Source: a virus
Lineage: Duplodnaviria > Heunggongvirae > Uroviricota > Caudoviricetes
IMG/VR virus record: IMGVR_UViG_3300047493_000037
Span: 94,713-158,712 of that record
Direction: 5' to 3' (one strand)
DNA: 64,000 nt
A model generated the notes under the pieces. It saw only the letters and a program-made list of their open reading frames with translations, did not search any database and was not told the origin of the DNA. This document shows, in pieces, positions 9,929 through 42,555 of this stretch. Every line of letters starts with the position of its first letter. Position 1 is the stretch's first letter. Both the position numbers and the translations under genes were made by a program.

Positions 9929-10003
9929 TTGGAGCACTCGCTGGGAATCGAACCCAGTCTTTTCGCTTTGCAGGCGAGACCTCATCCCAATCAGGCACGA
10001 GTG
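9929..10003 (-). tRNA. tRNA-Cys: tRNA-Cys (GCA)
   Basis: Acceptor GCACUCG/CGAGUGC, T-arm CUGGG-UUCGAUU-CCCAG, loop CUGCAAA, CCA encoded. Confidence 0.7.
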
Positions 10004-10008
10004 CAAAT

Positions 10009-10084
10009 TTGGTACCCAGTAAAGGAATCGAACCTTTATCAACTGATTCGTAGTCAGTTATCCTAATCCATTGAACGAACTGGG
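10009..10084 (-). tRNA. tRNA-Arg: tRNA-Arg (ACG)
   Basis: Acceptor GCCCAGU/ACUGGGU, anticodon stem ACUGA/UCAGU, loop CUACGAA, T-loop UUCGAUU. Confidence 0.7.
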
Positions 10085-10089
10085 CAAAC

Positions 10090-10164
10090 TTGGAGCGAGG
10101 TGTGGAATCGAACCACTCTTTCCGTTTTTGGCGGCAGTGCTGCCATTACACTAACCCAAGCAAC
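10090..10164 (-). tRNA. tRNA-like element (T-arm + CCA present, acceptor stem does not pair; possible pseudo-tRNA)
   Basis: GUGG-UUCGAUU-CCAC T-arm, 3' ACCUCGC-U-CCA, but no complementary 5' strand found. Confidence 0.3.
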
Positions 10165-10240
10165 TTGGTTGCTCTGAAAGGACTCGAACCTTCATATAAC
10201 GGCTTATGAAACCGCTGCCTAACCTCTCGGCACACAGAGC
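10165..10240 (-). tRNA. tRNA-Met: tRNA-Met (CAU)
   Basis: Acceptor UGCUCUG/CAGAGCA, T-arm GAAGG-UUCGAGU-CCUUU, loop UUCAUAA. Confidence 0.6.
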
Positions 10241-10249
10241 ATCTTAAAT

Positions 10250-10325
10250 TTTGGAGGTCCCACTCAGAATCGAACTGAATTCTCAGCCTTACAAAAGCCG
10301 TGCGTCACCATTTACGCTTTGAGAC
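10250..10325 (-). tRNA. tRNA-Thr: tRNA-Thr (UGU)
   Basis: Acceptor GGUCUCA/UGGGACC (one G.U), T-loop UUCGAUU, loop UUUGUAA. Confidence 0.55.
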
Positions 10326-10326
10326 C

Positions 10327-10400
10327 GTGGAGCAGATATCAAGAATCAAACTTGAGCCACTATGATACCAACATAGTATTCTATCACTAAACTATACCTG
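10327..10400 (-). tRNA. tRNA-Thr: tRNA-Thr (GGU)
   Basis: Acceptor GCAGGUA/UAUCUGC, anticodon stem CUAUG/CAUAG, loop UUGGUAU, T-loop UUUGAUU. Confidence 0.55.
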
Positions 10401-10406
10401 CAAACA

Positions 10407-10481
10407 TTGGAGCTCTGCGGTGGACTTGAACCACCTACTGCTGATTACGAAACAGCGATTATGCCAGGTTAACTAGCAGAG
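10407..10481 (-). tRNA. tRNA (anticodon tentatively CGU, Thr)
   Basis: Acceptor GCUCUGC/GCAGAGC, T-arm GGUGG-UUCAAGU-CCACC, CCA encoded. Confidence 0.5.
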
Positions 10482-10790
10482 CAAATTTTTTAACAAAACT
10501 TCTTGGTTGTCTTCGAAGAACCTCTTTGCGTCTTTAGGTGCTTCGCTTATAAGCTTATTTAACATCGACACCGCTTCGCTCTTCGCCTTGAATCTTCCAA
10601 CCAACTCGAAGTTCAAGAATACGCCAATGTCTCCGCTCTCGTTCCACTCTTCTCCACTTATGATGCAAGCATCAAATATTTCTAGTGTCCCGTAGACCTT
10701 ATAGTCTATAAAGGAGAAACTGTCCCTGAAGTCGTTGAGCACACCTATCCGATACCTAAAATTAAAAGCGCACGTTTTTAAAGTTCTCAA
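10473..10790 (-). CDS. hypothetical protein
   Basis: 105-aa ORF between tRNA array and LAGLIDADG gene; 3' end overlaps tRNA 10407..10481 by a few nt. Confidence 0.35.
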   Translation of the reverse strand: MRTLKTCAFNFRYRIGVLNDFRDSFSFIDYKVYGTLEIFDACIISGEEWNESGDIGVFLNFELVGRFKAKSEAVSMLNKLISEAPKDAKRFFEDNQEVLLKNLLC

Positions 10791-11260
10791 ATGTTGTCAT
10801 GTGTATATTTACCGTTTTTAATGTGACCGACTGTGCTTTTGTCTACATCAACTTCAGCTGCTATTTTTCTAAGACTTAATCCCGTGCTAATGAGCTCTTT
10901 AATCTTATCAAGTTTATGCTTGGTTAACTTTACTCGTTTAACTTTATATCCACTCATCGCCTTATCTATTTGTTCTTGCCTTCGTATGCCCATCAACGGT
11001 CTTAGTTTTGCCATTAAGTCATATGCAAGTTGCCCCGATAAGCGAATCGAGTATACGGTTTTATAATGCGGCAGGTCGCTCTTCCTGCGTTTTTGTTTGT
11101 GACATTTTACCTTTAGAAGCGTAGAAAGTTTTTCAATAATGTCTTTATCTGTTGACGCTCCATTGATAGCGCACATGTTTGGCATTGATGGACATCCATG
11201 AAGAAACGAACCTTCTCCTTCTAACCATCCAGCAAGCCAATACAAATCTTTGTCTTCCAT
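10787..11260 (-). CDS. LAGLIDADG homing endonuclease with C-terminal HTH
   Basis: YWLAGWLEGEGSF (LAGLIDADG motif) and C-terminal sigma-70 region-4-like HTH (LSLRKIAAEVDVDKSTVGHI); start taken at ATG 11258-11260 (MEDKDLY, AAGGT SD) rather than track start 11305. Confidence 0.75.
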   Translation of the reverse strand: MEDKDLYWLAGWLEGEGSFLHGCPSMPNMCAINGASTDKDIIEKLSTLLKVKCHKQKRRKSDLPHYKTVYSIRLSGQLAYDLMAKLRPLMGIRRQEQIDKAMSGYKVKRVKLTKHKLDKIKELISTGLSLRKIAAEVDVDKSTVGHIKNGKYTHDNI

Positions 11261-11275
11261 AAATACCTTATACTT

Positions 11276-11350
11276 TGGCGGAACCAGAGGGAGTCGAACC
11301 CTCACTTCACCTTAGACAGAGGTGTGTCATAGCCGCTAGACCATGGCTCC
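11276..11350 (-). tRNA. tRNA-Asp: tRNA-Asp (GUC)
   Basis: Acceptor GGAGCCA/UGGUUCC, T-arm GAGGG-UUCGACU-CCCUC, anticodon stem CACCU/AGGUG, loop CUGUCUA. Confidence 0.6.
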
Positions 11351-11356
11351 AAACTT

Positions 11357-11431
11357 GGGGTGTAAACTCGGTTACGATCCGAGACCTACTGCTTCACAGG
11401 CAGTCGTGCAAGCCACTACACAATAAACACC
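11357..11431 (-). tRNA. tRNA-His: tRNA-His (GUG) with extra 5' G(-1) and discriminator C
   Basis: Anticodon stem ACUGC/GCAGU, loop CUGUGAA; D-arm GUGU-AGUGGCUU-GCAC; 3' end ...ACAC-C-CCA. Confidence 0.55.
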
Positions 11432-11439
11432 ATCTAAAC

Positions 11440-11515
11440 TGGTCGGCAGTAGAGGGATCGAACCTCTGACCTTGATCTTGTAAGGATCCTGCTGCTTCCG
11501 CTGAGCTAACCGCCG
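11440..11515 (-). tRNA. tRNA-Val: tRNA-Val (UAC)
   Basis: Acceptor CGGCGGU/ACUGCCG, T-arm AGAGG-UUCGAUC-CCUCU, loop CUUACAA. Confidence 0.6.
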
Positions 11516-11520
11516 AAACT

Positions 11521-11596
11521 TGGTACGCGTAGAAGGAGTCGAACCTTCTTTTCTCGTGTATCAAACGAGTGTACTAAACCGGTGTACGATACGCGC
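11521..11596 (-). tRNA. tRNA-Ile: tRNA-Ile (GAU)
   Basis: Acceptor GCGCGUA/UACGCGU, anticodon stem CUCGU/ACGAG, loop UUGAUAC, T-arm GAAGG-UUCGACU-CCUUC. Confidence 0.65.
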
Positions 11597-11597
11597 A

Positions 11598-11709
11598 CAT
11601 TAAAAACACGGGAGGTGTCCTACCACTAGACGACAGCTGCTTGCGCAGCCGGCAGGATTCGAACCTGCGTTTCCACCCTCTCTGTCAAGACTCCGCGGAG
11701 TCTCTAACT
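11598..11709 (-). tRNA. aberrant tRNA-like element (canonical T-arm + acceptor-like hairpin with GCAA loop + D-arm-like segment in non-canonical order)
   Basis: GCAGG-UUCGAAU-CCUGC T-arm followed by CGGCUGC-GCAA-GCAGCUG hairpin and GUCU-AGUGGUA-GGAC; no canonical cloverleaf could be built. Confidence 0.25.
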
Positions 11710-11786
11710 TGGTCGGGATGGTGAGAATCGAACTCACTCGATGTTCTACCTCCAAAGTAGACGGCTCACCTTTAGCCCACATCCCG
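11710..11786 (-). tRNA. tRNA-Pro: tRNA-Pro (UGG)
   Basis: Acceptor CGGGAUG/CAUCCCG, anticodon stem UCUAC/GUAGA, loop UUUGGAG, T-loop UUCGAUU. Confidence 0.7.
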
Positions 11787-11798
11787 AAACTTAAACTT

Positions 11799-11875
11799 TG
11801 GTCCCCTCGGTCGGATTCGAACCGACAACCTTCGGCTTCTAAGACCGACACCTCTGCCAGTTGGGTTACGAGGGG
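11799..11875 (-). tRNA. tRNA-Leu: tRNA with Leu anticodon UAG but class-I (short variable arm) architecture
   Basis: Acceptor CCCCUCG/CGAGGGG, loop CUUAGAA, variable arm 5 nt, T-arm GUCGG-UUCGAAU-CCGAC; D-arm UAACCCAACUGGCAGAGGU shared with three other Leu-anticodon tRNAs. Confidence 0.5.
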
Positions 11876-11877
11876 AT

Positions 11878-11925
11878 CTTGAGAACATCATACTTCGCAC
11901 ATGCAATGCTTTCGCATGTTCTCAA
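11878..11925. repeat. 10-bp inverted repeat hairpin between tRNA genes (TTGAGAACAT...ATGTTCTCAA)
   Basis: Perfect 10-bp stem with 27-nt loop between tRNAs at 11875 and 11929. Confidence 0.5.
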
Positions 11926-11928
11926 ACT

Positions 11929-12002
11929 TGGAAGGGAATGAGTGAATCGAACACTCGTTGACAGGGTCAGAACCTGTTAGCTTACCACTAGCTGAATTCC
12001 CA
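11929..12002 (-). tRNA. tRNA-Gln: tRNA-Gln (CUG)
   Basis: D-arm AGCU-AGUGGUA-AGCU, anticodon stem ACAGG/CCUGU, loop UUCUGAC, T-arm GAGUG-UUCGAUU-CACUC; U1 start. Confidence 0.55.
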
Positions 12003-12012
12003 ACATAAACTT

Positions 12013-12086
12013 TGGAGCGAATAGAGAGAATCGAACTCTCGAAGCCTGCTTGGAAGGCAGGGGTTTTACCACTAAACTACATTCGC
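12013..12086 (-). tRNA. tRNA-Gly: tRNA-Gly (UCC)
   Basis: Acceptor GCGAAUG/UAUUCGC, anticodon stem CCUGC/GCAGG, loop CUUCCAA. Confidence 0.7.
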
Positions 12087-12088
12087 AC

Positions 12089-12162
12089 TGGCAGGGAAAC
12101 ATGGAATCGAACCAAGATTGGCCGGGTCAAAGCCGGCTGTCTTACCACTAGACGATTTCCCT
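12089..12162 (-). tRNA. tRNA-Gln: tRNA-Gln (UUG)
   Basis: Acceptor AGGGAAA/UUUCCCU, D-arm GUCU-AGUGGUA-AGAC, anticodon stem GCCGG/CCGGC, loop CUUUGAC. Confidence 0.65.
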
Positions 12163-12174
12163 ACTTTTAAAACA

Positions 12175-12248
12175 TGGAGCGCGAAGAGAGAATCGAACTC
12201 TCGACCGATGTCTGGCAGACATCTATTTTTCCATTAAACTACTCGCGC
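12175..12248 (-). tRNA. tRNA-Gly: tRNA-Gly (GCC)
   Basis: Acceptor GCGCGAG/UUCGCGC, anticodon stem GAUGU/ACAUC, loop CUGCCAG, T-arm GAGAG-UUCGAUU-CUCUC. Confidence 0.6.
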
Positions 12249-12256
12249 TCGAAAAC

Positions 12257-12799
12257 CTAGCCACTTTCCAATTCTGTCGTCCAATACTCTAACGACTTTA
12301 AATCAACATAAGGTTCCCATTCTTTTGGCAGCACCTTCATCTTAACGATCATCTGAACCGGCAACCACTTTGGCTCAATTGGCTTCTTGAGAAGCTTCAT
12401 CTTTGCCTGCTCAGGAGTTTTGTCCTCTTTTGAGCTGTTGCATGGTCTGCATGCAGTTACGATGTTAGTCCAGTTTGTCTGGCCGCCTTGAGCCCGGGGC
12501 AACACGTGGTCGAACGTTAGCTCTTTCACGGGTTTCCTCTCTCTGCAGTATTGGCAAGTCCACTCATCTCTCATGTAGATGTTGATCCTGCTAAACTGAA
12601 CCTTTCCCTTCCTCTTGAACTTCTTAAGTTGTCTAATTACGCTAGGTAATTTCCACTCCAGATAAGCTGATCTAATCAGCTGACTAGACTCTTCTACAAC
12701 TTCTGCATCGCCGGTGACGATTCTATGCATTGCGTCCTCCCAGCTAATCACTTTGAGAGGCTCATATGTGGAATCGAGTAATAGCACTGCCATATTCAT
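12257..12799 (-). CDS. HNH homing endonuclease
   Basis: TFDHVLPRAQGGQTNWTNIVTACRPCNSSKEDK (HNH: DH...N...C..CN..K); embedded between tRNA genes. Confidence 0.8.
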   Translation of the reverse strand: MNMAVLLLDSTYEPLKVISWEDAMHRIVTGDAEVVEESSQLIRSAYLEWKLPSVIRQLKKFKRKGKVQFSRINIYMRDEWTCQYCRERKPVKELTFDHVLPRAQGGQTNWTNIVTACRPCNSSKEDKTPEQAKMKLLKKPIEPKWLPVQMIVKMKVLPKEWEPYVDLKSLEYWTTELESG

Positions 12800-12898
12800 A
12801 TCCTCTCATTATACGTTGGTGCACCAGCAAGGTAACGATCCTTGTTCCACGGATTAAAAGTCCGCTGCTCATCCTGTTAAAGCTTTCAAGTGCAAATT

Positions 12899-12973
12899 TG
12901 GTAGGACTACGGAGAATCGAACTCCGGTCTACTGGTTAAGAGCCAGCAGCTTTACCACTAAGCTATAGTCCTA
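12899..12973 (-). tRNA. tRNA-Lys: tRNA-Lys (CUU)
   Basis: Acceptor AGGACUA/UAGUCCU, D-arm GCUU-AGUGGUA-AAGC, anticodon stem GCUGG/CCAGU, loop CUCUUAA. Confidence 0.7.
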
Positions 12974-12992
12974 TGTTATTCCTTCTAAAGTT

Positions 12993-13067
12993 TGGTGGAC
13001 AGCTGGGAAATCGAATCCCACCAACCGCAGTGCAAGTGCAGTTCGCCACCTTGGTACATGGCCGCCC
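12993..13067 (-). tRNA. tRNA, tentative Ala (UGC)
   Basis: Acceptor GGGCGGC/GCUGUCC with two G.U pairs, T-arm UGGGA-UUCGAUU-UCCCA, anticodon stem CUGCA/UGCGG, loop CUUGCAC; weak D-stem. Confidence 0.4.
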
Positions 13068-13245
13068 GAATTATTTAATTGTTACTTAGTTTCCGCTAGT
13101 GTATTTATTATTACGCCCAAAGCGGGAGGCGTTTGGTAAGTGGCTTAATGCCATCAGTACCTTGAACACATGGGAGTGCGGTGGCGCAATCGCGCTGCAT
13201 CCCTTTTAGACTTGAGTGTGTGTGTACAAACGTGTTCATAAAATG

Positions 13246-13280
13246 ATTATACCGTGTATTTCCATTAGATTCAGAAATTA
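13246..13280 (-). promoter_or_regulatory. sigma70-like promoter (GGTATAAT -10) upstream of tRNA array 1
   Basis: Minus-strand reading cacgGTATAATca at 13244-13256, same motif as upstream of arrays 2 and 3. Confidence 0.45.
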
Positions 13281-13460
13281 TTTTTTAGAGTGCTCTTTTT
13301 GCAAAACGAACAGCATTACCACCATAGCAATGGGCCATAGAAGTACGCCTAGAATTAGGCCCTTCATTAGGTCTATAAAACTAGCACCATCGTAAGTCTT
13401 AAATCTGGTGATAGCTAAAATAAGGTAGAAAATCCAACCAATTAGGAGATAAGCGCTCAT
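13278..13460 (-). CDS. small membrane protein (two predicted TM helices)
   Basis: 60-aa hydrophobic ORF. Confidence 0.45.
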   Translation of the reverse strand: MSAYLLIGWIFYLILAITRFKTYDGASFIDLMKGLILGVLLWPIAMVVMLFVLQKEHSKK

Positions 13461-13843
13461 TCGATTAACTTCTTTTCTAGCTCTAAAAAGAACTGTATTT
13501 CAGCGATAACTTCATGTCTAACTTCGCTATTATCGCACGGCATCCAATCAGTCCAATCTTTGTCTTCTATTGGATTATTGTATTTTGCATACACTGAGTG
13601 TTTAACGTAAAACTTCTCATTCTCAATCATCCATCTTGCATAAGATGGGCCGGTTATTAGCCAACTTTCAAGTACATATGTTCCATCGTCGTACACAATG
13701 ATGTCTTGATCAGCGCGAGTGTTAACTCTTCCCTTAAAGATGATTCGCTTATCGGTCATTGGGCTTTTTAGGGACAGGCAACTTGCGAGAGTAACGAACA
13801 ACGCCTTGGTACGAAAGAGTTCCTTGAGGGTTGTCATATACAA
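13457..13843 (-). CDS. hypothetical protein
   Basis: 128-aa ORF, ATGA overlap with 13278..13460. Confidence 0.55.
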   Translation of the reverse strand: MYMTTLKELFRTKALFVTLASCLSLKSPMTDKRIIFKGRVNTRADQDIIVYDDGTYVLESWLITGPSYARWMIENEKFYVKHSVYAKYNNPIEDKDWTDWMPCDNSEVRHEVIAEIQFFLELEKKLIE

Positions 13844-13912
13844 GTCGAGTGTCTTCGCCGTTAGCCTTCAAATAGTTGAGACAGAGTTGAAACATGAGCG
13901 TTACTAGATATT

Positions 13913-14332
13913 TCATTTGAGCAAGTTTCTTTCCATGTTGCGACTTAAGAGCTCCTCACGAATAATTTCTACGTAAGAGGTATCGAGGGTAATAAGCTTT
14001 AGGCGATAAGCCTTGATGAGTATTTTAAGGTCGCTCTCGGGAATTCGAATGGTGTCGCTTCTCTCAAACTTGTGTTTCTTATTTATGTCCCACTCATCGA
14101 TGACAGACATCGCCTGTTCACGAATTAATTTTGCACGCGCTTGTGAAACCTGATCCCATCCTTGTAGGGCGAAAGAGATTGGCCAAAAGAACACTACCAA
14201 CGCAAGAAGGAGGCCGTCACCTTTTTCATCTAAGTCAATATGCGTTTTGCTATCGTCTGGATCAATGACGATGATGCTATATATTACAGGCATCACGAAG
14301 GCGCTAATTAGGTAGTAAGTAAACCAACTCAT
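13913..14332 (-). CDS. membrane protein
   Basis: 139-aa ORF with two hydrophobic segments. Confidence 0.55.
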   Translation of the reverse strand: MSWFTYYLISAFVMPVIYSIIVIDPDDSKTHIDLDEKGDGLLLALVVFFWPISFALQGWDQVSQARAKLIREQAMSVIDEWDINKKHKFERSDTIRIPESDLKILIKAYRLKLITLDTSYVEIIREELLSRNMERNLLK

Positions 14333-14341
14333 TGTTGATTA

Positions 14342-14545
14342 TTAGAATCGGAAATTTGTGAAGTGCGATAAGTTAATATACCAGTCTTTTGCTTTAAGAC
14401 TATTACAATCTCTACATCTAGGATTTAACCTAGACTTACTGTTTTTATCGTTTGAGAAGTTAGATTCGTCTAGATCTTGTTTGCAAGAAGAACATGTCAT
14501 TCTTGCATTATACAGTGGTGTTTCCAGCGGGGTTCGAACCCGCAT
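14342..14545 (-). CDS. small Cys-rich (zinc-ribbon-like) protein
   Basis: 67 aa with CSSCKQ...CRDCN. Confidence 0.35.
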   Translation of the reverse strand: MRVRTPLETPLYNARMTCSSCKQDLDESNFSNDKNSKSRLNPRCRDCNSLKAKDWYINLSHFTNFRF

Positions 14546-14591
14546 TTATCGATTGAAAGTCGATTTTCCTAAGCCAATTAGAAGATGGAAA
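14516..14591 (-). tRNA. tRNA-Glu: tRNA-Glu (UUC)
   Basis: Acceptor GUUUCCA/UGGAAAC, anticodon stem AUCGA/UCGAU, loop CUUUCAA, T-arm GCGGG-UUCGAAC-CCCGC. Confidence 0.7.
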
Positions 14592-14593
14592 CG

Positions 14594-14669
14594 TGGAAGC
14601 GCCAATGGGAATCGAACCCATCTTTTCGCATTGAGAATGCGAGGTCCTTAACCAATAGACGATGGCGCC
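14594..14669 (-). tRNA. tRNA-Glu: tRNA-Glu (CUC)
   Basis: Acceptor GGCGCCA/UGGCGCU, anticodon stem UCGCA/UGCGA, loop UUCUCAA, T-arm AUGGG-UUCGAUU-CCCAU. Confidence 0.65.
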
Positions 14670-14781
14670 ATTTTAAGCTGTGATGGGAGATTTAGGTGTA
14701 CGAAGTGAAAACAACGCACACCAAGCGTTCTTGCTCAGATTCCATGAATTGGATTGTGATGTTTGCGTTGTTCATGTGATT

Positions 14782-14815
14782 ATTATACCACGTTTAATTC
14801 TAATGCATCTTCTAA
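14782..14815 (-). promoter_or_regulatory. extended -10 promoter (TGGTATAAT) upstream of tRNA array 2
   Basis: Minus-strand aacgTGGTATAATaa (plus attatacc at 14782-14789). Confidence 0.5.
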
Positions 14816-15028
14816 GGCGCCGTGAGTTCTTTTGTACAGTCTTTCAGCACCTTTTTCAGCTAGTCTTTCAGTGCGATACACTGCCGTGTAAGCCATTTTG
14901 CCTTCTAACTCGCCGTCTTTGTACTCAATGACGTACTTTATCTCCGGATCTCTGCCCATCCCTACTAGCCACATGTAGGTGATAGTAGTTATGCAATAAT
15001 AGTGGCGCCACATGTCATTCACGCCCAT
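14783..15028 (-). CDS. hypothetical protein
   Basis: 81-aa ORF. Confidence 0.4.
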   Translation of the reverse strand: MGVNDMWRHYYCITTITYMWLVGMGRDPEIKYVIEYKDGELEGKMAYTAVYRTERLAEKGAERLYKRTHGALEDALELNVV

Positions 15029-15492
15029 GAAGGTTTAGTGCCGTTCTTCCAAGTAGGAGCTCTCTTGTCTGCAAGCCACTTCTCTTTCATCGTAAGCTTG
15101 TATGCCTCAACAACCTCCATATCCTTATGAGGACTGCAGTTGGCAAACGGAGTTTGAGGTCCTTGAGGCATGAGCACTCTGCCGTCGAATAGAGTGCTAA
15201 AGTATTCGTGGCACTTGTGAATTTTGCCATATCTTAAAGTGTACTGCGCGAGCAAGGAATTAAGGTGAAGAAGTAGCCATACATAATTTCCACGAGAAGC
15301 TCTCACCCAGACAGAGCACGGATGATTTGCGTGAGTTGTCTTATAAGGTCCAGCTCCTCCGGAGAGGTTAATTGCTGTAGATAGCATCTGCGTTGACTCA
15401 AGGATCATCTTGATGACGCGCTTGTCGTCAAGATGATGAGCTGAGATTGCAGGGTCGACATCTGTTACAAATATATTCATCACCAATACCAT
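15019..15492 (-). CDS. denV: T4 endonuclease V-like pyrimidine-dimer DNA glycosylase
   Basis: N-terminus MNIFVTDVDPAISAHHLDDKRV vs T4 DenV [23 protein letters not shown] and C-terminal KRAPTWKNG vs QRPTWYKYYG; similar length. Confidence 0.5.
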   Translation of the reverse strand: MVLVMNIFVTDVDPAISAHHLDDKRVIKMILESTQMLSTAINLSGGAGPYKTTHANHPCSVWVRASRGNYVWLLLHLNSLLAQYTLRYGKIHKCHEYFSTLFDGRVLMPQGPQTPFANCSPHKDMEVVEAYKLTMKEKWLADKRAPTWKNGTKPSWA

Positions 15493-15728
15493 CCAGATAA
15501 TGTTTTCTTAGCAGATTGAAGACCAAGTTTTGCTAAGATAGTGAACACTAAACCTTGTCTCACTTCGGCCATACTAGGCGTATGATAGTACTCTTCCGCC
15601 CCATAAAGAAAGTCAAAGTACTCATCCCACTTCAGCGAATCTTCTTCGCTCGCTTGTTCTTTTATAGAATCAGAAGCACTTTTTGACCTATTGTATTTGC
15701 CTTTTAATTCTTTACTATTTAAACTCAT
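15480..15728 (-). CDS. hypothetical protein
   Basis: 82-aa ORF. Confidence 0.5.
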   Translation of the reverse strand: MSLNSKELKGKYNRSKSASDSIKEQASEEDSLKWDEYFDFLYGAEEYYHTPSMAEVRQGLVFTILAKLGLQSAKKTLSGWYW

Positions 15729-15824
15729 AATTTCATTCTACTAGGTTAAGAAAAATAAATCTAATTCCATCTTGTATTTTTGAACTTTTGTGTTAGAATC
15801 TAGTTATCACCCCAAGGAGGACTT
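15729..15824. promoter_or_regulatory. divergent intergenic region (minus gene 15480..15728 / plus gene 15825..16136)
   Basis: AT-rich 96 bp with TTGAAC and TAGAAT elements and AGGAGG SD before the plus-strand ATG. Confidence 0.35.
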
Positions 15825-16136
15825 ATGAGTCAGACCGTTAATAAGGGTGCCATATCAAAGCTTTGCATCAAGAACAAAGCTCCAGGCACTATTTCCACAG
15901 GCGCAAATACAGAAGTAACACTCGACGGCCAAAAGCTAGGCGGAGTTTCTTTTCTAAAGATGGAGTTTAAACCTAAGAACGTTGTCAAGATTACTATGGA
16001 GATGTATTGTGAAGTTGAAGTCGATGTCGACGTTCAACTAGAGCAAACATCTATCAACCCAGACGAAGAGATTAAGATAGGCGATGCTGTCTATGTCTTA
16101 GGTAAGTACGAAACAGTTGGTTTCCCTAAGAAGTAA
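15825..16136 (+). CDS. hypothetical protein (plus-strand)
   Basis: 103-aa ORF with perfect AAGGAGG SD 6 nt upstream of ATG. Confidence 0.6.
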   Translation: MSQTVNKGAISKLCIKNKAPGTISTGANTEVTLDGQKLGGVSFLKMEFKPKNVVKITMEMYCEVEVDVDVQLEQTSINPDEEIKIGDAVYVLGKYETVGFPKK

Positions 16137-16229
16137 TGGCGGAAGGTAGGGGAGTTGAACCCATGGGCGTTTTTTAGGCGCCGGCAGTTTAGCAAACTGC
16201 TGTGGAAAACCGACATCCACGTACCTTCC
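16137..16229 (-). tRNA. tRNA-Ser: tRNA-Ser (GCU), class II with long variable arm
   Basis: Acceptor GGAAGGU/ACCUUCC, D-stem GUGG/CCAC, anticodon stem GCAGU/ACUGC, loop UUGCUAA, long variable hairpin; 93 nt. Confidence 0.6.
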
Positions 16230-16230
16230 A

Positions 16231-16548
16231 TTAATCCTCAAACGTTAGACCAATTGCTTGCTCAAGTGTCTTATCGATCCAGTTTTGATAGGCTGCATCA
16301 AGTATCTTTTGCTTATCTTTGTTGGCAAAGAAACTTTGCGCCCCAATCAGCCGTTTCCTGACAGTTTCTAACTTACACACCTTATCGTTTTCTATAGCTA
16401 GTAAGCGAACTGTCACCATTTGGTCATGAAATATTGGTTCTTCAGGATCTAACCTTGCAGACATGTTGTCAAAGTTAAAATACCAACAGTCTACTAATAC
16501 TTCTGTTTGTTGAACAACGTTTTGTTTCTTCTTGCTAAATGGCCACAT
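16231..16548 (-). CDS. hypothetical protein
   Basis: 105-aa ORF fitting exactly between two tRNA genes. Confidence 0.5.
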   Translation of the reverse strand: MWPFSKKKQNVVQQTEVLVDCWYFNFDNMSARLDPEEPIFHDQMVTVRLLAIENDKVCKLETVRKRLIGAQSFFANKDKQKILDAAYQNWIDKTLEQAIGLTFED

Positions 16549-16553
16549 AAATT

Positions 16554-16624
16554 TGGTGTCCCCGACAGGAATCGAACCTGCCTATCAGCTTTAGGAAAAC
16601 CGAGACCTATCCTTAGGCGGGGAC
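16554..16624 (-). tRNA. tRNA (71 nt; anticodon arm not resolved)
   Basis: Perfect acceptor GUCCCCG/CGGGGAC, T-arm GCAGG-UUCGAUU-CCUGU, CCA encoded; middle region shares GGAUAGGU element with tRNA 16811..16881. Confidence 0.45.
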
Positions 16625-16625
16625 A

Positions 16626-16702
16626 TGGTGCTCGAGATGGGAGTCGAACCCACAACACCTAGGCTCTCGACCTAGTACCTCTTCCAGTTGGGTTACTCAA
16701 GC
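16626..16702 (-). tRNA. tRNA-Leu: tRNA with Leu anticodon GAG, class-I architecture
   Basis: Acceptor GCUUGAG/CUCGAGC, anticodon stem CUAGG/CCUAG, loop UCGAGAG (C33), D-arm UAACCCAACUGGAAGAGGU. Confidence 0.45.
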
Positions 16703-16810
16703 AAATTTTTTACTCTTGTACACCGGGTACGACATAAATACCCGCCATTCAAGTTTTTCGTCTATTACTTCTAGCTTTTTAAGCAAATTTAATAGATCTG
16801 TCATCATATC

Positions 16811-16881
16811 TGGTGGTCCCAGAAGGAGTCGAACCTTCTTCCCAAGCTTAGAAGGCTCGGTACCTATCCACAGGTGGGACC
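16811..16881 (-). tRNA. tRNA (71 nt; anticodon arm not resolved)
   Basis: Perfect acceptor GGUCCCA/UGGGACC, T-arm GAAGG-UUCGACU-CCUUC, CCA encoded. Confidence 0.45.
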
Positions 16882-16967
16882 AATATTTGCCCGACTAGGA
16901 GTTCAACTACCGCGCCGGGACTTCAGCGTCGCCAACGTCTTTTCAGGGCGTTCTTACGCTTTTATCT

Positions 16968-17044
16968 TGGTGCTCCGAGAGGGATTCGAACCCTCAACAT
17001 TTCGTTTTTGAGACGAACGACTCTTCCAGTTGGTCTACCGAAGC
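16968..17044 (-). tRNA. tRNA-Leu: tRNA with Leu anticodon CAA, class-I architecture
   Basis: Acceptor GCUUCGG/UCGGAGC, anticodon stem UUCGU/ACGAA, loop CUCAAAA, D-arm UAGACCAACUGGAAGAGUC, T-arm GAGGG-UUCGAAU-CCCUC. Confidence 0.5.
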
Positions 17045-17050
17045 AAATTT

Positions 17051-17126
17051 TGGTGCCCACCATCGGATTCGAACCGATACTGTACGCGTTTTAAGTGCGC
17101 TGACTCTGCCATTGGTCTACGCGGGC
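17051..17126 (-). tRNA. tRNA-Leu: tRNA with Leu anticodon UAA, class-I architecture
   Basis: Acceptor GCCCGCG/GGUGGGC (6/7), loop CUUAAAA, D-arm UAGACCAAUGGCAGAGUC, T-arm AUCGG-UUCGAAU-CCGAU. Confidence 0.5.
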
Positions 17127-17132
17127 AAATTT

Positions 17133-17209
17133 TGGTGGGGCCATTCCATTAGTCGGACTGCAGCGACCCCTAGTTGGACTAATCAACTCTCGACGATCTA
17201 TCGAGAATT
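17133..17209 (-). tRNA. degenerate tRNA-like element (CCA end and acceptor-like hairpin, no T-loop)
   Basis: Begins like neighbouring tRNAs (aaattttggtgggg) but folds only into GGGGUCG...UGGCCCC hairpin plus short stem-loops. Confidence 0.2.
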
Positions 17210-17300
17210 TGGTGGAGCGTGAAGGATTTGAACCATTCGTCTACCAACCCTACTTATTTTTCGACAGCGGTTTTACAGACCGTCGTAGGGAACACACTCC
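17210..17300 (-). tRNA. tRNA-Tyr: tRNA-Tyr (GUA), class II
   Basis: Acceptor GGAGUGU/ACGCUCC, anticodon stem CGGU/ACCG, loop CUGUAAA, long variable region, T-loop UUCAAAU; 91 nt. Confidence 0.5.
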
Positions 17301-17305
17301 AAATT

Positions 17306-17391
17306 TGGCGGAAGGTGGACGAATCGAACGCCGGACCTTTCGGTCCCCTCAGGGTTCAAACCTGATTGCCAACCATTTAGCGGCACCTTCC
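17306..17391 (-). tRNA. tRNA-Ser: tRNA-Ser (UGA), class II
   Basis: Acceptor GGAAGGU/ACCUUCC, anticodon stem UCAGG/CCUGA, loop UUUGAAC, variable hairpin GGACC-GAAA-GGUCC. Confidence 0.6.
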
Positions 17392-17597
17392 ATAAACTAA
17401 TTGAGACAAGCTATAGCCGCGATTCTGTCTTCGCCTCGCGGCGGAGAACATCATTCGTCTAGGAGAGTTGTCGCCAACTCCCTCAAGCTTGGTACCCGTA
17501 AGCACTACGAGCCGTAGTATAGCTTACCTATTTCCAATTGCTGCACGTAAAGATTGCTCGTTTCAACCCGCACTGAAGCGGTTACGTTCCTGTAGCT

Positions 17598-17999
17598 CTA
17601 ATTCTCAGGTCGCCCTGGGCAGTTGTTATCTGCTACGTTGCTCTCACAGTCGCGAACTTCCTCGACCCTTGGAAGGATCGCGATGTTCTCGCTCATCTCA
17701 AACTTATTAGACTTCTTACTATTTTCCTCTAATGTTAGAAGTTGTAAATTCCAAGGCACATGAAGTCCGCTAACATTTTCGCCATTCACTGGGACGATAT
17801 GGTCCACAGTTAGGTTTAACTCTTTAGCTGATTTATAAAGAGCCTTCATTTTATCTTTTTGCTCTTTTGTTAACCATTTTGGACTAGCCAAACGTCGTTT
17901 CGCCCTATATTCAGCAGTTAAAAAGTTCTTAATATGTTGATTTTCACTTCGCCATTTTCTTTGACGACCTTTTTCGTCAGTATCTGCTCTATATTGCAT
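17598..17999 (-). CDS. HNH homing endonuclease
   Basis: LTVDHIVPVNGENVSGLHVPWNLQLLTLEENSKK (HNH motif); between tRNA arrays. Confidence 0.7.
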   Translation of the reverse strand: MQYRADTDEKGRQRKWRSENQHIKNFLTAEYRAKRRLASPKWLTKEQKDKMKALYKSAKELNLTVDHIVPVNGENVSGLHVPWNLQLLTLEENSKKSNKFEMSENIAILPRVEEVRDCESNVADNNCPGRPEN

Positions 18000-18054
18000 A
18001 ATTCTTTTTTTATTAGACTTATAATAATTTGCACCCGCACCTCTTGTGCAAATT

Positions 18055-18131
18055 TGGTGCCGATTGTTGGTTCCGCCCCAACGATCTTCTCCTCTTCAGG
18101 GAGACGCTTCCACTAGGTTAGCTTAATCGGC
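18055..18131 (-). tRNA. tRNA-Phe: tRNA-Phe (GAA) with non-canonical T-loop (GGCGGAA)
   Basis: Perfect acceptor GCCGAUU/AAUCGGC, anticodon stem UCUCC/GGAGA, loop CUGAAGA; T-stem GUUGG/CCAAC, but the loop lacks the UUCRANY consensus. Confidence 0.45.
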
Positions 18132-18140
18132 ATGTAACTT

Positions 18141-18216
18141 TGGCTGGGAAGGCAGGGATCGAACCTGCGACGTCTTGATTAACAGTCAAGCGGACTACCA
18201 ACTGTCCTACTTCCCA
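18141..18216 (-). tRNA. tRNA-Asn: tRNA-Asn (GUU)
   Basis: Acceptor UGGGAAG/CUUCCCA, D-arm GGAC-AGUUGGUA-GUCC, anticodon stem CUUGA/UCAAG, loop CUGUUAA, T-arm GCAGG-UUCGAUC-CCUGC. Confidence 0.7.
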
Positions 18217-19311: not shown

Positions 19312-20223
19312 TTACTTACCGGTTGCGTGCTTTGCGATTGAGTAACAGTACTTCGAGAAGTTAGTCTTCTGAAGCTTGTTATCGTTTAGAAACTGTGAGA
19401 GCCAGTCAGGATAGTTGCCACCGTGATGCTTGATCTCAACTATGATGTGCTCCTTGGGAGAATAGTTGTCGATCATAGACATGAGAGCGCTCTTCTCTTC
19501 ACTAGCCTTGCTAAGCTCAGCGCTGATCCCGCTAGGGATAACATCGAGAACCTTATACTGAACTCCCTCGTCAAATGTTACCCTAAGTCCTGCATCGTTA
19601 GCAGTGCCGTCTGTGTAAGCGCGACGAACATACTCAGTCTCGCAAGAGGGACGGAGGTGGAAGAGTTCTAAAGCTTGATTGATGTCAGCCACGCGTTTCA
19701 CCAAGTCTGGGAGAGCAACGTTGGGATTCATCTTGGCTAGTTGAATGGTTGGAGTAAGTGGAGCACCCTTCTTAAAGGTCTCCATCGTGTCCTTAGGAAC
19801 CTTGATGCGAAACTTGTCAGAGATGTCGCCGTGTTTTGCCTTGATCTCTAGGAAAGCGAAGTCGTTCTTCTGCAGCTTCCCGTTAGGTGCGTACTCTCTA
19901 GTCCTGAGTTTAAACCTGCTGTTTGCCTTGGACATATGATGTTGAACCATGTCAAGGTTAGAGGAATCAAAGTAGACGGACTTCATTAAGTTGAAGTTGG
20001 TGCCCTTATCTGGATAATCAGCCTTCATGTGCTTGCTAAGGAGTCTAACAAGCTCATCCTTAAAGGCCTTTGGGATCAAGTACTTATCTTCAAAACGTCT
20101 AAATAAAGAAGTATCAGAAGACTTCATCAAACCTTCTACGATGTACTTATCTGCGTAAGATTTTGCGAATGTCTCTGTCGTGATTGGTTCTGGTGTTGCC
20201 CACTGATTATTGTTCTTATGCAT
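19312..20223 (-). CDS. VTC/CYTH-like triphosphate tunnel metalloenzyme domain protein (polyphosphate-polymerase-like)
   Basis: 303 aa; RFEDKYLI start motif plus alternating charged strands (FKLRTREY, AFLEIKAK, LRVTFDEG, IIVEIKHH) typical of TTM/VTC domains; assignment tentative. Confidence 0.5.
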   Translation of the reverse strand: MHKNNNQWATPEPITTETFAKSYADKYIVEGLMKSSDTSLFRRFEDKYLIPKAFKDELVRLLSKHMKADYPDKGTNFNLMKSVYFDSSNLDMVQHHMSKANSRFKLRTREYAPNGKLQKNDFAFLEIKAKHGDISDKFRIKVPKDTMETFKKGAPLTPTIQLAKMNPNVALPDLVKRVADINQALELFHLRPSCETEYVRRAYTDGTANDAGLRVTFDEGVQYKVLDVIPSGISAELSKASEEKSALMSMIDNYSPKEHIIVEIKHHGGNYPDWLSQFLNDNKLQKTNFSKYCYSIAKHATGK

Positions 20224-25453: not shown

Positions 25454-26854
25454 TCATCTGCGCCCCTTGTTGGCTGCGGTATCCGGAATTTGAACTGTAT
25501 CCCCTAAACGTTTCAAAGGATGGTCTTTGGTCCCGCCTTTAGAGATGATGAACAACGTAGTTGGCCACTTCTCACCAGGCTTCATCCAAGACTCCACGGG
25601 AACATCGCCGTAGCATCCGTCGGTAATAACCACGCTGAGATCCGGCTTCTTTTTGAGGATTTCCGCCATCACTGGAGTGAGGTCAGTGCCTCCACTCTGG
25701 ATGTCCTCGCGCTTGATGCGCGTACCAACGCGGTACTCCTCATTCTTGTATAGAGCTGTGTGAAAGAAACCAAGTTTGCACTTGCGTGCACCAACCCTAA
25801 GGAACTGATCCACCACCTCGAGAAACTCGTTAGCTTCCTCGATGGAGATCGACCCAGAAGTATCGATGAAGTTCTGCAACTTAGGCAAATCGCCAACCTT
25901 AGTTCCTGGAGCTTTGTTGCCAAAGCGCTTACTCTTGCGAGTCCAGGTGTTCTTGCGATCGTGACCTGCAGCGTGCTTCTTCATAGCCAAGAGCAAGAGA
26001 GCTTTGTAGTTCAGCTCTGCACGGCGAGACTTGATATCCTCAAGAAGCTCCTTGACAGAGTCAGGCAAGCTCGAGTAGTCAAGGCGAGCCTTAACCATGG
26101 CGCGCTTGACAAGCTCCTCGGTGGCATCGAGCATCTCGCCTTCTTCAGCAGCTCCATCCCACATGTGCTCGTCGAGAGTCTGAGGCAAATCGCCTGTGTC
26201 AGCTCCACCACCGGCATTGCCTTCTCCATCGCCTTCACACTCGTCATCTTTGTCAGGGTCGTCAAAGCGCTGAAGCAACTTCTCGTAATAATATTCCATG
26301 GTTTTGTTCTTGTCCCAAGGAATCTGCTTCTGAGTCTTAACGTCGATGTCAAAATAGTCTTCGACAAAGATGCCGCGACCTGGACACATGTCATTCTCAC
26401 AAGGCTTGCGCTCCTCAGGCTTAGGGCACTGAGTGCAACCTTTTGGCAAGTTCTTGATGTACTGATTGATCGCCATGTCTGCTGCAACGTTCATCAGCAT
26501 GCGCTTGCGAGCGGAGATCTTGAGGAAGGGAACACGGAGTGGATGTTTGTGAGTAATGTGGCTCAACTCATGGAGTAAGACCGCTTTCTGCTCAAGAAGA
26601 TTGAGCTTCTTGCAGAAGAAATATGGGTTGATGATCATGTCCCAGCGCTTTGCATCAGTGTTAAACATGATGCCTGCAGTTGGGATGACGTGCCCATAGC
26701 TGATCGTGAGGCACTGAAGAACAGAACCAAGGAATGGGTGAGTCTTGGAACACTCGTAGATGGCCGAAGCCAACGCACGCGTCTTCAACTCAACCGAAAC
26801 TTGCTCGTGATCCAACAACTCTTTAGTAATCTTTGGACGAACGCGTGATGACAT
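25454..26854 (-). CDS. VWA-domain protein with N-terminal putative HExxH metallopeptidase domain (CobT-like / MoxR partner)
   Basis: LLHELSHITHKH (HExxH) N-terminal; C-terminal MIDAS DTSGSIS...T...D; 466 aa; lies next to MoxR ATPase gene. Confidence 0.75.
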   Translation of the reverse strand: MSSRVRPKITKELLDHEQVSVELKTRALASAIYECSKTHPFLGSVLQCLTISYGHVIPTAGIMFNTDAKRWDMIINPYFFCKKLNLLEQKAVLLHELSHITHKHPLRVPFLKISARKRMLMNVAADMAINQYIKNLPKGCTQCPKPEERKPCENDMCPGRGIFVEDYFDIDVKTQKQIPWDKNKTMEYYYEKLLQRFDDPDKDDECEGDGEGNAGGGADTGDLPQTLDEHMWDGAAEEGEMLDATEELVKRAMVKARLDYSSLPDSVKELLEDIKSRRAELNYKALLLLAMKKHAAGHDRKNTWTRKSKRFGNKAPGTKVGDLPKLQNFIDTSGSISIEEANEFLEVVDQFLRVGARKCKLGFFHTALYKNEEYRVGTRIKREDIQSGGTDLTPVMAEILKKKPDLSVVITDGCYGDVPVESWMKPGEKWPTTLFIISKGGTKDHPLKRLGDTVQIPDTAANKGRR

Positions 26855-34099: not shown

Positions 34100-34555
34100 C
34101 TATTCTCCTGCTAGTTCTTGACGCACTTGCATCAGTGCCTTGCCAAGTAGGTTTTGCCCAGTTCCAACTCCACCCTTTTCGCCAGTGCCCCAGACTTTGT
34201 CATAAGGCGAATCTTCGTAGATGAGAGCATCTCCAGTGGATAGAAGGATCTCTTTAAGCTTGGGATTGTTGCCAAACTTGGCCGTGAGAGCATCAAGCAT
34301 GACATCATACTTAACATCGTCCCAGTCAGTGCGAAGCGTGATCACTCTGCCCATCCGCTTGGCATCAAGCGGAGTTGCTGCCTTGCGAATTCCTTCTTGC
34401 TCCTCTTCGTTTAGCGTCTTCTGAGCAGCAAAGTAGTGCTCTGTAGTCGGCCAAGACTTCCCGTCGATCTCAAAAGGACCAGCATAAAAGTTTGAGAAGC
34501 AACCGTATTGCTCCTTGTCATCTTCAGACCAGAAGAAAATCTTTTGTCTTGCCAT
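34100..34555 (-). CDS. NADAR (YbiA/DUF1768) domain protein
   Basis: Near-collinear with E. coli YbiA: FSNFY..PF..DGK.WPT.EHYF.AQK, AKRMGR, KF..NP.L...LL.TG...L.E....D..WG.G..G.G.N.LGK.LM.VR. Confidence 0.85.
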   Translation of the reverse strand: MARQKIFFWSEDDKEQYGCFSNFYAGPFEIDGKSWPTTEHYFAAQKTLNEEEQEGIRKAATPLDAKRMGRVITLRTDWDDVKYDVMLDALTAKFGNNPKLKEILLSTGDALIYEDSPYDKVWGTGEKGGVGTGQNLLGKALMQVRQELAGE

Positions 34556-41847: not shown

Positions 41848-42555
41848 ATGTAAATATATGATCAGAATTATAGGAGTTTACCGAGCAGATGGAATAAGCT
41901 GTAGTAGGTCTGGTGGTTTCCTACGAATATGCCACCGCAACGTTTTATGATGATGTCATCTGCTCTATCAAGAATTGCATTTTTGGTATTAAACAACACG
42001 CGTGTTTATATAATCAGAATAAGCGGCCACGAAGCAGTGTCAAGGTATTAATCTTGTAACCCTAAGTTTGGATAACAATAAGACCACATAGTACGTAGAA
42101 ACTTCTTTATTATAGGTATCTAACTCATCGAACAATAAAGCAAACGATTTTATGACACGATCTGGCTTACGATAGCTCTTCATGAGCACATCTCGCAACC
42201 GATGTCGCAGAAGCCGCACTCTGCACAGCCATAGCCGACCGGCCACTCATACATATAAAGACAAGGATCAACACTGAGACGCCTGAGGAGAAGTATCAGT
42301 CTAGTTTTCGCTTGGTGATCTGTTTGAAAGCGCATCACAGACGATCCGCATTAATGAAGATAACGCGGCCACGCTGTCTCCTACTGATTATAGTGAGATG
42401 CATCATTAGACGGGTAAGATCCGATATTGAGATATAGTGCCGATGCGTAAAACGCATAGAGAATTTGGTTGCAAGGCCAGTAGTCGAAACTGGTACACCT
42501 TCATGCTTATGAGGCATGCGAGCCGCCGTTGCTCGATCCTTGCGATCTAAATTAT

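Follow-up and report, generated by a model that had tools for sequence, protein, structure and literature searches.

Which amino acid is carried by tRNAs that combine leucine anticodons with a short variable arm? This question is raised by four tRNA genes in a 64,000-nucleotide stretch of DNA from a virus of the Caudoviricetes (IMG/VR record IMGVR_UViG_3300047493_000037, positions 94,713 to 158,712). The whole of this stretch is referred to here as the window, and all coordinates are counted from its first nucleotide. A preliminary description of the locus had noted that bacterial tRNA-Leu is normally a class-II molecule with a long variable arm, and that the four genes could encode either atypical, class-I substrates of leucyl-tRNA synthetase (LeuRS) or tRNAs whose amino acid identity has been switched. 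To judge from the sequence comparisons described below, it is likely that they are four functional, phage-encoded type-I leucine tRNAs, which would most likely be charged by the LeuRS of the host.

Four class-I tRNA genes with leucine anticodons

Of the 26 tRNA genes that ARAGORN predicts in the window with default settings, four carry Leu anticodons; their positions are identical to those previously described, and all are on the minus strand:

11799..11875, minus strand: tRNA-Leu(UAG), class I; 74 nt plus encoded CCA; variable loop AGGUU; A73; D arm ACC-C-AACUGGCAGA-GGU
16626..16702, minus strand: tRNA-Leu(GAG), class I; 74 nt plus CCA; variable loop GUGUU; A73; D arm ACC-C-AACUGGAAGA-GGU; anticodon loop UCGAGAG
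16968..17044, minus strand: tRNA-Leu(CAA), class I; 74 nt plus CCA; variable loop AUGUU; A73; D arm GAC-C-AACUGGAAGA-GUC
17051..17126, minus strand: tRNA-Leu(UAA), class I; 73 nt plus CCA; variable loop ACAGU; A73; D arm GAC-C-AAUGGCAGA-GUC

The genes lie in a tRNA cluster of about 35 genes (9.9-18.2 kb), counted from the default ARAGORN calls together with lower-threshold, Rfam and by-eye candidates. The ARAGORN scores of the four are 106-116, and the Rfam model RF00005 (gathering score 29) gives 59.6 bits for Leu(UAG), 45.2 for Leu(GAG), 53.5 for Leu(CAA) and 42.1 for Leu(UAA). Drawn structures and a segment parse bear out the architecture that had been reported, namely a 7-bp acceptor stem, A73, a 5-nt variable region and a near-identical D arm. 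In all four molecules the acceptor stem is followed by U8 A9, and U48 is the last nucleotide of the variable region. The D stem consists of 3 bp (ACC/GGU or GAC/GUC), with C13 and A22 unpaired in every case, and the D arms read ACC-C-AACUGGMAGA-GGU or GAC-C-AA(C)UGGMAGA-GUC; the D loop of Leu(UAA) is 1 nt shorter than that of the other three. The anticodon arm has a 5-bp stem and a 7-nt loop, the T arm is standard, G18G19 is canonical and CCA is encoded in all four genes. The motif CCAA(N)TGGMAGAG has four copies in the window, all in the Leu tRNAs, where 0.01 would be expected by chance.

A short variable loop might be an artefact of the fold call that conceals a long arm, an intron or wrongly placed gene ends. 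The chance of this is practically negligible. ARAGORN and Rfam give the same boundaries, and each molecule is closed at 73-74 nt by a 7-bp acceptor stem, after which CCA follows. As the molecules comprise only 73-74 nt without CCA, there is no space for a long arm, and the spacing from position 37 to G53 is exactly 15 nt. Minimum free energy folding results in a class-I cloverleaf for three of the four tRNAs, including Leu(GAG) and Leu(CAA), and in a long-arm alternative for none, so that a long variable arm is not revealed by the alternative folds that had been considered. The long arm of canonical class-II tRNA-Leu (about 10 nt or more) is absent from all four genes. Each has the Leu anticodon, the 5-nt variable loop and the canonical D and T loops of type-I tRNA-Leu. 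The four genes are genuine class-I tRNAs with Leu anticodons.

The D arm carries a leucine-type identity signature

To place the shared D arm, we compared 327 short-arm and 64 long-arm phage Leu tRNAs with about 1,800 other phage tRNAs, taken from 215 IMG/VR loci. The alignment was built by hand on structure, since MAFFT, applied to about 2,250 tRNA bodies, introduced too many gaps (298 columns). Short- and long-arm phage Leu tRNAs have A14, A15, Y16, U17, G18G19, Y20, A20a, G21, A22, U48 and A73 in common, and because of A22 positions 13 and 22 are unable to pair in both groups. A73 is found in 96% of the short and 94% of the long Leu tRNAs, and U48 in 93% and 92%, respectively. Nine of these features were combined into a signature (A14, A15, G18G19, A20a, G21, A22, unpaired 13:22, U48 and A73). 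All four Leu tRNAs of the window show nine out of nine. The full signature is present in 39% of the long-arm Leu tRNAs (63% if G21 is dropped) and in none of the approximately 1,800 non-Leu phage tRNAs; some features were picked after viewing the data and the short-arm reference set was partly chosen by its D-loop pattern, but neither choice alters the zero rate in non-Leu tRNAs.

In E. coli, the leucine identity set consists of A73, the A15-U48 Levitt pair, G18G19 and A20a, and the anticodon and the long arm are dispensable (review PMC9976931). At the sequence level, the E. coli-type set (A73, U8:A14, A15:U48, the placement of G18G19, and A20a) is present in all four window tRNAs. E. coli tRNA-Leu(CAG), whose sequence is confirmed by gene annotations in 5,426 genomes, shares this D loop, GAAUUGGUAGA, which reads G-AAUUGGUAG-A in its context. 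The D arm of the four tRNAs is a leucine-type arm and no oddity for a tRNA-Leu. It had been described as shared and unusual; it is indeed alike in all four, but it is the arm of E. coli-type tRNA-Leu.

Compared with long-arm Leu tRNAs, the core of the short form is changed around the site of the lost arm, with A9 in place of G9, C12-G23 in place of G12-C23 and C13 in place of G or A at position 13. Position 9 follows the 12:23 pair: A9 with C12-G23 is the major combination (59%, including all four window tRNAs), and G9 with G12-C23 is the minor one. When 80 class-I Leu tRNAs, three of them from the window, were aligned without gaps, double-sided changes were observed at 20 of 20 stem pairs and 94% of the cells were paired, with a covariation score of 0.98 compared to 0.23 after shuffling. 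Positions 13 and 22 are unpaired in 80 of these 80 sequences.

Conservation of the class-I fold in related viruses

Neither a megablast search of the tRNA region against GenBank phages nor a search for the exact Leu(CAA) gene in IMG/VR returned a match. Relatives of this large phage, 115-176 kb long, were reached in IMG/VR by protein search. In the closest of them, 3300049215_000227 (88% protein identity), the tRNA genes follow the order of the window and a 74-nt class-I Leu(UAG) occupies the same slot; its acceptor, anticodon and T stems differ from those of the window by compensatory changes. A syntenic class-I orthologue of Leu(UAG), with compensatory stem changes, is found at position 5848 of relative L393, and a class-I Leu(UAA) lies in the same neighbourhood at position 19327 of relative L469. 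Relatives at 69% and 59% protein identity have class-I Leu(UAA) and Leu(UAG) too. Since the class-I fold is kept in synteny with compensatory changes, it is under selection.

The long arm is retained elsewhere in the same cluster: a variable stem-loop is formed by Ser(GCU) (16137-16229) as well as by Ser(UGA) (17306-17391). No long-arm Leu tRNA was found in the window, either at relaxed ARAGORN thresholds or with Rfam.

Distribution in phages and bacteria

IMG/VR was searched with patterns for class-I Leu(NAG) that place 15 nt (5-nt loop) or 16 nt (6-nt loop) between position 37 and G53, and at least 120 and 95 contigs, respectively, were matched. A pattern that allows any spacer and in which the anticodon loop CUUAGAA and the T loop GGTTCGAATCC are the sole fixed elements returned 83 short and 32 long spacings in 114 new IMG/VR loci of 29-63% G+C. 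The other Leu tRNAs of these 114 loci have short-to-long ratios of 29:8 (CAA), 20:20 (UAA) and 10:8 (GAG); for Ser and Tyr, the long-to-short ratios are 73:2 and 30:4. In one IMG/VR sample, short-arm exceed long-arm Leu tRNAs by about 2:1, a ratio that is approximate because the chosen T loop somewhat favours the short class. Across the 215 viral loci, long and short arms stand at 154:1 for Ser and 65:4 for Tyr.

The type also occurs in bacterial genomes. Scanning of 185,579 species genomes gave at least 120 class-I Leu loci, and about 69 of the 80 records listed belong to Actinomycetota. A lone 74-75-nt tRNA-Leu(UAA/CAA) with the D arm UA-GCCC-AAUUGGCAGA-GGC is present at 92 of the 120 loci listed, and the remaining listed loci are mostly tRNA arrays on contigs of metagenome-assembled genomes (MAGs) from other phyla. 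Arrays of 19-25 tRNA genes with class-I Leu were seen at loci L230 (Acidobacteriota), L287 (Blastocatellia) and L302, L313 and L326 (other MAGs); these five are probably phage or prophage DNA, or tRNA-array units, and not core chromosome.

Among cultured phages, class-I tRNA-Leu is carried by the T4-like Citrobacter phage Ci1 and Cronobacter phage S13, the KVP40-like Vibrio phage V07, and further by Bacillus phage P59, Lactobacillus phage Iacchus, Pseudomonas phage XD2, Sinorhizobium phage Phosso and Gordonia phage Phendrix. These genes are annotated plainly as tRNA-Leu. Their presence shows that the type is not limited to phages of Actinomycetota. Matches of Klebsiella phages to the 3′ half of Leu(CAA) were discarded; they are ordinary 85-nt class-II genes. 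An actinobacterial host, suggested by the matches in Actinomycetota genomes, was not kept as a firm conclusion, as phages of Vibrio, Citrobacter, Bacillus, Lactobacillus, Pseudomonas and Sinorhizobium also carry the type and the G+C content of the phage is 44%.

The rarity of class-I tRNA-Leu that the preliminary description implied was therefore overstated, as such genes are common in phage tRNA clusters and in Actinomycetota. Its premise that bacterial tRNA-Leu is normally class II does not hold for Actinomycetota, where class-I genes are chromosomal. Our literature searches found no paper that describes class-I tRNA-Leu in phages. The four genes are thus a further case of an existing, little-noticed type, and the finding that phage tRNA-Leu are mostly arm-less is apparently undescribed.

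Amino acid identity and alternative explanations

The meaning of the Leu codons was examined in the phage's own genes. When NAMPT is compared with five distant phage homologues, Leu stands opposite CTC, CTG, CTT, TTA and TTG in 43-80% of cells, and one of Leu, Ile, Val, Met or Phe in 75-100%; CTA is represented by only two positions, neither of which is aligned with Leu, and is uninformative in this comparison. When 37 open reading frames (ORFs) were compared with those of relatives, each of the six Leu codons aligned with Leu in 66-76% and with one of the five hydrophobic residues in 86-95%, CTA being covered by 135 cells, and the Leu codons swap freely among one another. Because the six codons align to Leu, there is no sign of reassignment in the phage genes. 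The tRNAs themselves point in the same direction. Depending on the window gene, 37 to 50 of the 50 nearest neighbours are Leu tRNAs, and the chromosomal class-I tRNA-Leu(UAA) genes of Mycobacterium, Gordonia and Rhodococcus match Leu(UAA) at 80-84% identity.

Several observations weigh against leucine tRNAs of full function. Leu(UAA), which has the lowest Rfam score of the four, contains the mismatches G7.G66 and A31.C39. Leu(GAG) and Leu(CAA) carry A20 in the D loop. A20 is a determinant for arginyl-tRNA synthetase (ArgRS) and is conserved at 96% in the phage tRNA-Arg set. The CUN readers Leu(UAG) and Leu(GAG) have A37 after G36, whereas bacterial CUN-reading tRNA-Leu use G37, where m1G37 is formed; in the set of phage class-I Leu(NAG) tRNAs, A37 occurs 119 times and G37 77 times. 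Two home-made position-weight isotype classifiers were trained on phage tRNAs, the Leu class being represented by long-arm molecules. They have cross-validated accuracies of 80% (all positions) and 57% (loop and tertiary positions only) and give the four tRNAs near-zero scores (-6 to +6 bits) with Lys, Arg or Leu as top label. The lean towards Arg is due to A20 in Leu(GAG) and Leu(CAA), and the classifier result was counted neither way. Finally, E. coli LeuRS did not charge the type-I tRNA-Leu(CAA) of Streptomyces coelicolor (PMC6614811). U48, which is required by E. coli-type LeuRS, is present in the phage tRNAs, and the S. coelicolor tRNA has C48. Apart from these points, we note that Leu(GAG) has C33 in place of the near-universal U33.

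The class-I shape in combination with Leu anticodons, the A20 in two of four tRNAs and the weak lean of the crude classifiers to Arg or Lys for three of four would all be compatible with a switched identity, in which readers of Leu codons are charged with another amino acid and the phage recodes CUN or UUR. We regard this as very unlikely. The aminoacyl-tRNA synthetases (aaRSs) that accept class-I tRNAs with A73 mostly need their own anticodon, and ArgRS needs C35, where the window tRNAs have A35 (PMC9976931). The four tRNAs have no G3:U70 for alanyl-tRNA synthetase and neither a long arm nor G73 for seryl-tRNA synthetase (SerRS), and they do carry the Leu-specific signature of D arm, U48 and A73. 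Within the 64-kb window there is no ORF of aaRS size (the largest has 554 aa), and no aaRS domain was found among the window proteins scanned. In close relatives, Leu or hydrophobic residues stand opposite all six Leu codons; for distant homologues this is true of five codons. A switch of the kind known from yeast mitochondrial tRNA-Thr, which had been offered as a parallel, is thus not supported, given anticodon loops of 7 and not 8 nt, the missing G3:U70 and long arm, and Leu codons that keep their meaning. Of the two readings proposed at the outset, that of atypical class-I LeuRS substrates is best supported, by the identity set, by the 80-84% identity of Leu(UAA) to actinobacterial genes and by a precedent in Streptomyces, while the identity switch is not.

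It is also conceivable that the genes are conserved outside ordinary decoding, as decoys or sponges for tRNA-targeting nucleases or modification enzymes, or that they are decaying. Phage tRNA arrays hold odd members, the window has several aberrant tRNA-like genes, and the two mismatches of Leu(UAA) and the lack of G37 in the CUN readers could be read in this way. However, the set is complete and non-redundant for the six Leu codons, with CCA, T loops and G18G19 intact, orthologues in relatives hold the fold via compensatory changes, and covariation is strong in every stem across the family. Furthermore, the single-copy chromosomal gene of many Actinomycetota loci, listed without another tRNA at the 92 loci mentioned above, would presumably be an ordinary decoder there. 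We therefore consider a role outside decoding, or decay, unlikely and prefer the reading as functional leucine tRNAs.

Proposed function and significance

As functional leucine tRNAs, the four genes would be transcribed together with the cluster and then processed. The host LeuRS would dock on the acceptor end with A73 and on the elbow where the D and T arms meet, and the variable arm would not be needed. The elbow features that are presumably read, U8:A14, the A15:U48 Levitt pair, the placement of G18G19, and A20a, are kept in all four molecules. Leucylation by the host enzyme would allow use in translation, where UAG and GAG would decode CUN and CAA and UAA would decode UUR, so that all six Leu codons would be served during infection. 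Loss of the arm would be tolerated for Leu but not for Ser and Tyr because SerRS and tyrosyl-tRNA synthetase use the arm, which fits the near-absence of short Ser and Tyr tRNAs.

It is doubtful, though worth considering, that the arm-less tRNA-Leu form a phage-adapted, horizontally spreading lineage and are not passive copies of host tRNAs. Most tRNA-Leu in phage tRNA clusters have this form, and it is also found in phages that infect Proteobacteria and Firmicutes, hosts whose tRNA-Leu are, to our knowledge, themselves long-armed. A short form might be portable across hosts without confusion with tRNA-Ser or tRNA-Tyr, and it might escape effectors that sense the class-II arm, such as MenT/AbiEii-type nucleotidyltransferases or Schlafen-like nucleases; MenT3 uses the arm of a serine tRNA (paper on M. 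tuberculosis). Neutral streamlining of the arm could be the alternative to adaptation.

A review states that tRNA-Leu is long-armed everywhere save in animal mitochondria (PMC9976931), a generalisation that the phage class-I tRNA-Leu contradict. These tRNAs offer natural and diverse substrates for the study of LeuRS-tRNA recognition, and to annotators they indicate that a 74-nt tRNA-Leu call is no reason to suspect an error. They also raise the question why phages prefer the short form. For the window itself, our reading amounts to ordinary leucine decoding by an under-appreciated existing tRNA type, and its value lies in the general phage pattern.

RNase P RNA and other features of the window

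Besides the Leu tRNAs, the cluster and its surroundings contain the following RNA features:

17398-17700, minus strand: type-A bacterial RNase P RNA, inside the tRNA cluster (RF00010, 178 bits, threshold 100)
18058-18131, minus strand: Phe(GAA) with an aberrant T loop (Rfam, 44 bits), absent from default ARAGORN
17306-17391, minus strand: Ser(UGA), class II, absent from default ARAGORN
16812-16883, minus strand: Arg(UCU), absent from default ARAGORN
about 16554-16624, minus strand: Arg(CCU), recognized by eye, absent from default ARAGORN
12817-12893, minus strand: Lys(UUU), absent from default ARAGORN
11602-11693, minus strand: Ser(CGA), a weak call without CCA, absent from default ARAGORN
17210-17300, minus strand: tRNA-like gene of 91 nt with a CCA end, an 8-bp acceptor stem, a bulged T stem and GUA in an oversized loop
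33624-33700, minus strand: Ile(UAU), isolated from the cluster (ARAGORN)
42466-42544, minus strand: Met(CAU), 79 nt with an 8-nt variable loop, isolated (ARAGORN)
48597-48687, minus strand: 91-nt call with a 2-nt anticodon (ARAGORN), probably a false positive

The RNase P RNA aligns end to end over 303 nt and is without most of P12 and the whole P13/P14 block of about 44 nt. At the corresponding site, relatives L463 and L469 carry this gene too, with 188 bits over 286 nt in the former and 159 bits in the latter. A literature search found no description of a phage RNase P RNA, and this RNA may be more novel than the Leu tRNAs. The tRNA-like gene at 17210-17300 may be an odd class-II tRNA-Tyr; it is called by ARAGORN only at a very low threshold, with a mis-assigned anticodon, and such low-threshold calls in the 16.5-18.3 kb region are mostly junk. 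CCA is encoded on every parsed tRNA of the cluster (9930-18216, minus strand) except the weak Ser(CGA). In several cluster tRNAs the discriminator is atypical for the anticodon; examples are A73 or U73 in Glu and U73 in Gln.

The window proteins include NAMPT, ribonucleotide reductase, thymidylate synthase, DNA ligase and HNH endonucleases. G+C content ranges from 41 to 49% in the window and is about 44% for the phage. Putative homing-endonuclease-type ORFs are scattered among the tRNA genes at 12257-12799, 17598-17999 and 10787-11305 (all on the minus strand). The three include an HNH protein (Pfam HNH_5, 1e-17), an HTH protein and an HNH-like ORF, which was judged by eye, with only a sub-threshold GmrSD_C match in Pfam, and whose 3′ end extends about 100 nt into the RNase P RNA gene. 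Accessory genes near the cluster are located at 15019-15492, 19312-20223, 25454-26854 and 34555-35553 (all on the minus strand). Among this set are a DenV-like pyrimidine-dimer glycosylase and a VTC-domain protein, as well as:

25454-26854, minus strand: DUF2201 metallopeptidase/VWA protein
34555-35553, minus strand: AAA ATPase, about 8 kb from the DUF2201 protein

Comparison with known systems

A precedent for a natural class-I tRNA-Leu in bacteria is the type-I tRNA-Leu(CAA) of S. coelicolor, whose variable loop has 5 nt and which its own LeuRS (ScoLeuRS) can charge with leucine; five nucleotides is also the shortest variable loop that still allows relatively high charging (Fan et al. 2019, PMC6614811). 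It resembles the window tRNAs in its Leu anticodon, the 5-nt variable loop, the canonical D and T loops and U8:A14. It differs in having C48 and in that A73 is no determinant for its LeuRS, whereas the window tRNAs combine U48 with A73. The actinobacterial class-I genes have the same D-arm architecture as those of the window and a close sequence (UA-GCCC-AAYUGGCAGA-GGC). In Actinomycetota, however, one or two isoacceptors are class I, while in the window all four are, and they are phage-borne. In M. tuberculosis, long loops are present in only three tRNA-Leu, numbers 2, 3 and 5 (paper on M. tuberculosis).

Class-II E. coli tRNA-Leu(CAG) shares A73, U8:A14, A15:U48, the 3-bp D stem and the unpaired 13:22 with the window tRNAs, and the E. 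coli tRNA-Leu D loop (A14 A15 Y U G18 G19 Y A20a G21 A22) is like theirs. It has a long arm and G37, whereas the window tRNAs are armless and their CUN readers have A37. Arm-less, minimalist derivatives of E. coli tRNA-Leu are still active, according to the account of Larkin et al. (2002) given in the review (PMC9976931), by which LeuRS charges them if A73 and the D/T-loop contacts are kept. In that account those molecules are engineered and some also lack the anticodon arm, whereas the tRNAs of the window are natural, full cloverleaves.

Two mitochondrial systems are comparable in shape. Animal mitochondrial tRNA-Leu(UUR/CUN) are also class I, with A73 and A14 as determinants (PMC9976931). 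The human mitochondrial tRNA-Leu(UUR) transcript, in contrast to the window tRNAs with their canonical G18G19 and T loops, is floppy and has mismatched anticodon-arm pairs (PMC9976931), and it is served by its own mitochondrial LeuRS; ScoLeuRS does not charge human mitochondrial tRNA-Leu (PMC6614811). Yeast mitochondrial tRNA-Thr1(UAG) is, like Leu(UAG) of the window, a class-I tRNA with a UAG anticodon. Its anticodon loop comprises 8 nt, a dedicated synthetase serves it, and the CUN codons are reassigned. In contrast, the window tRNAs have 7-nt loops, no synthetase was found in the 64-kb window, and the Leu codons stand for Leu.

Further counterparts are the class-I tRNA-Leu of cultured phages, which are only 74-86% identical in sequence to those of the window. 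They have the same length, U48 and A73, and often an encoded CCA. The D arm is the same or nearly so, some having one base changed or a longer D loop. Phages Ci1 and Phendrix carry both class-I and class-II Leu tRNAs, whereas the window has class I only. The class-I tRNA-Leu(CAA) of Citrobacter phage Ci1 has the variable loop AUGUU, identical to that of Leu(CAA) in the window.

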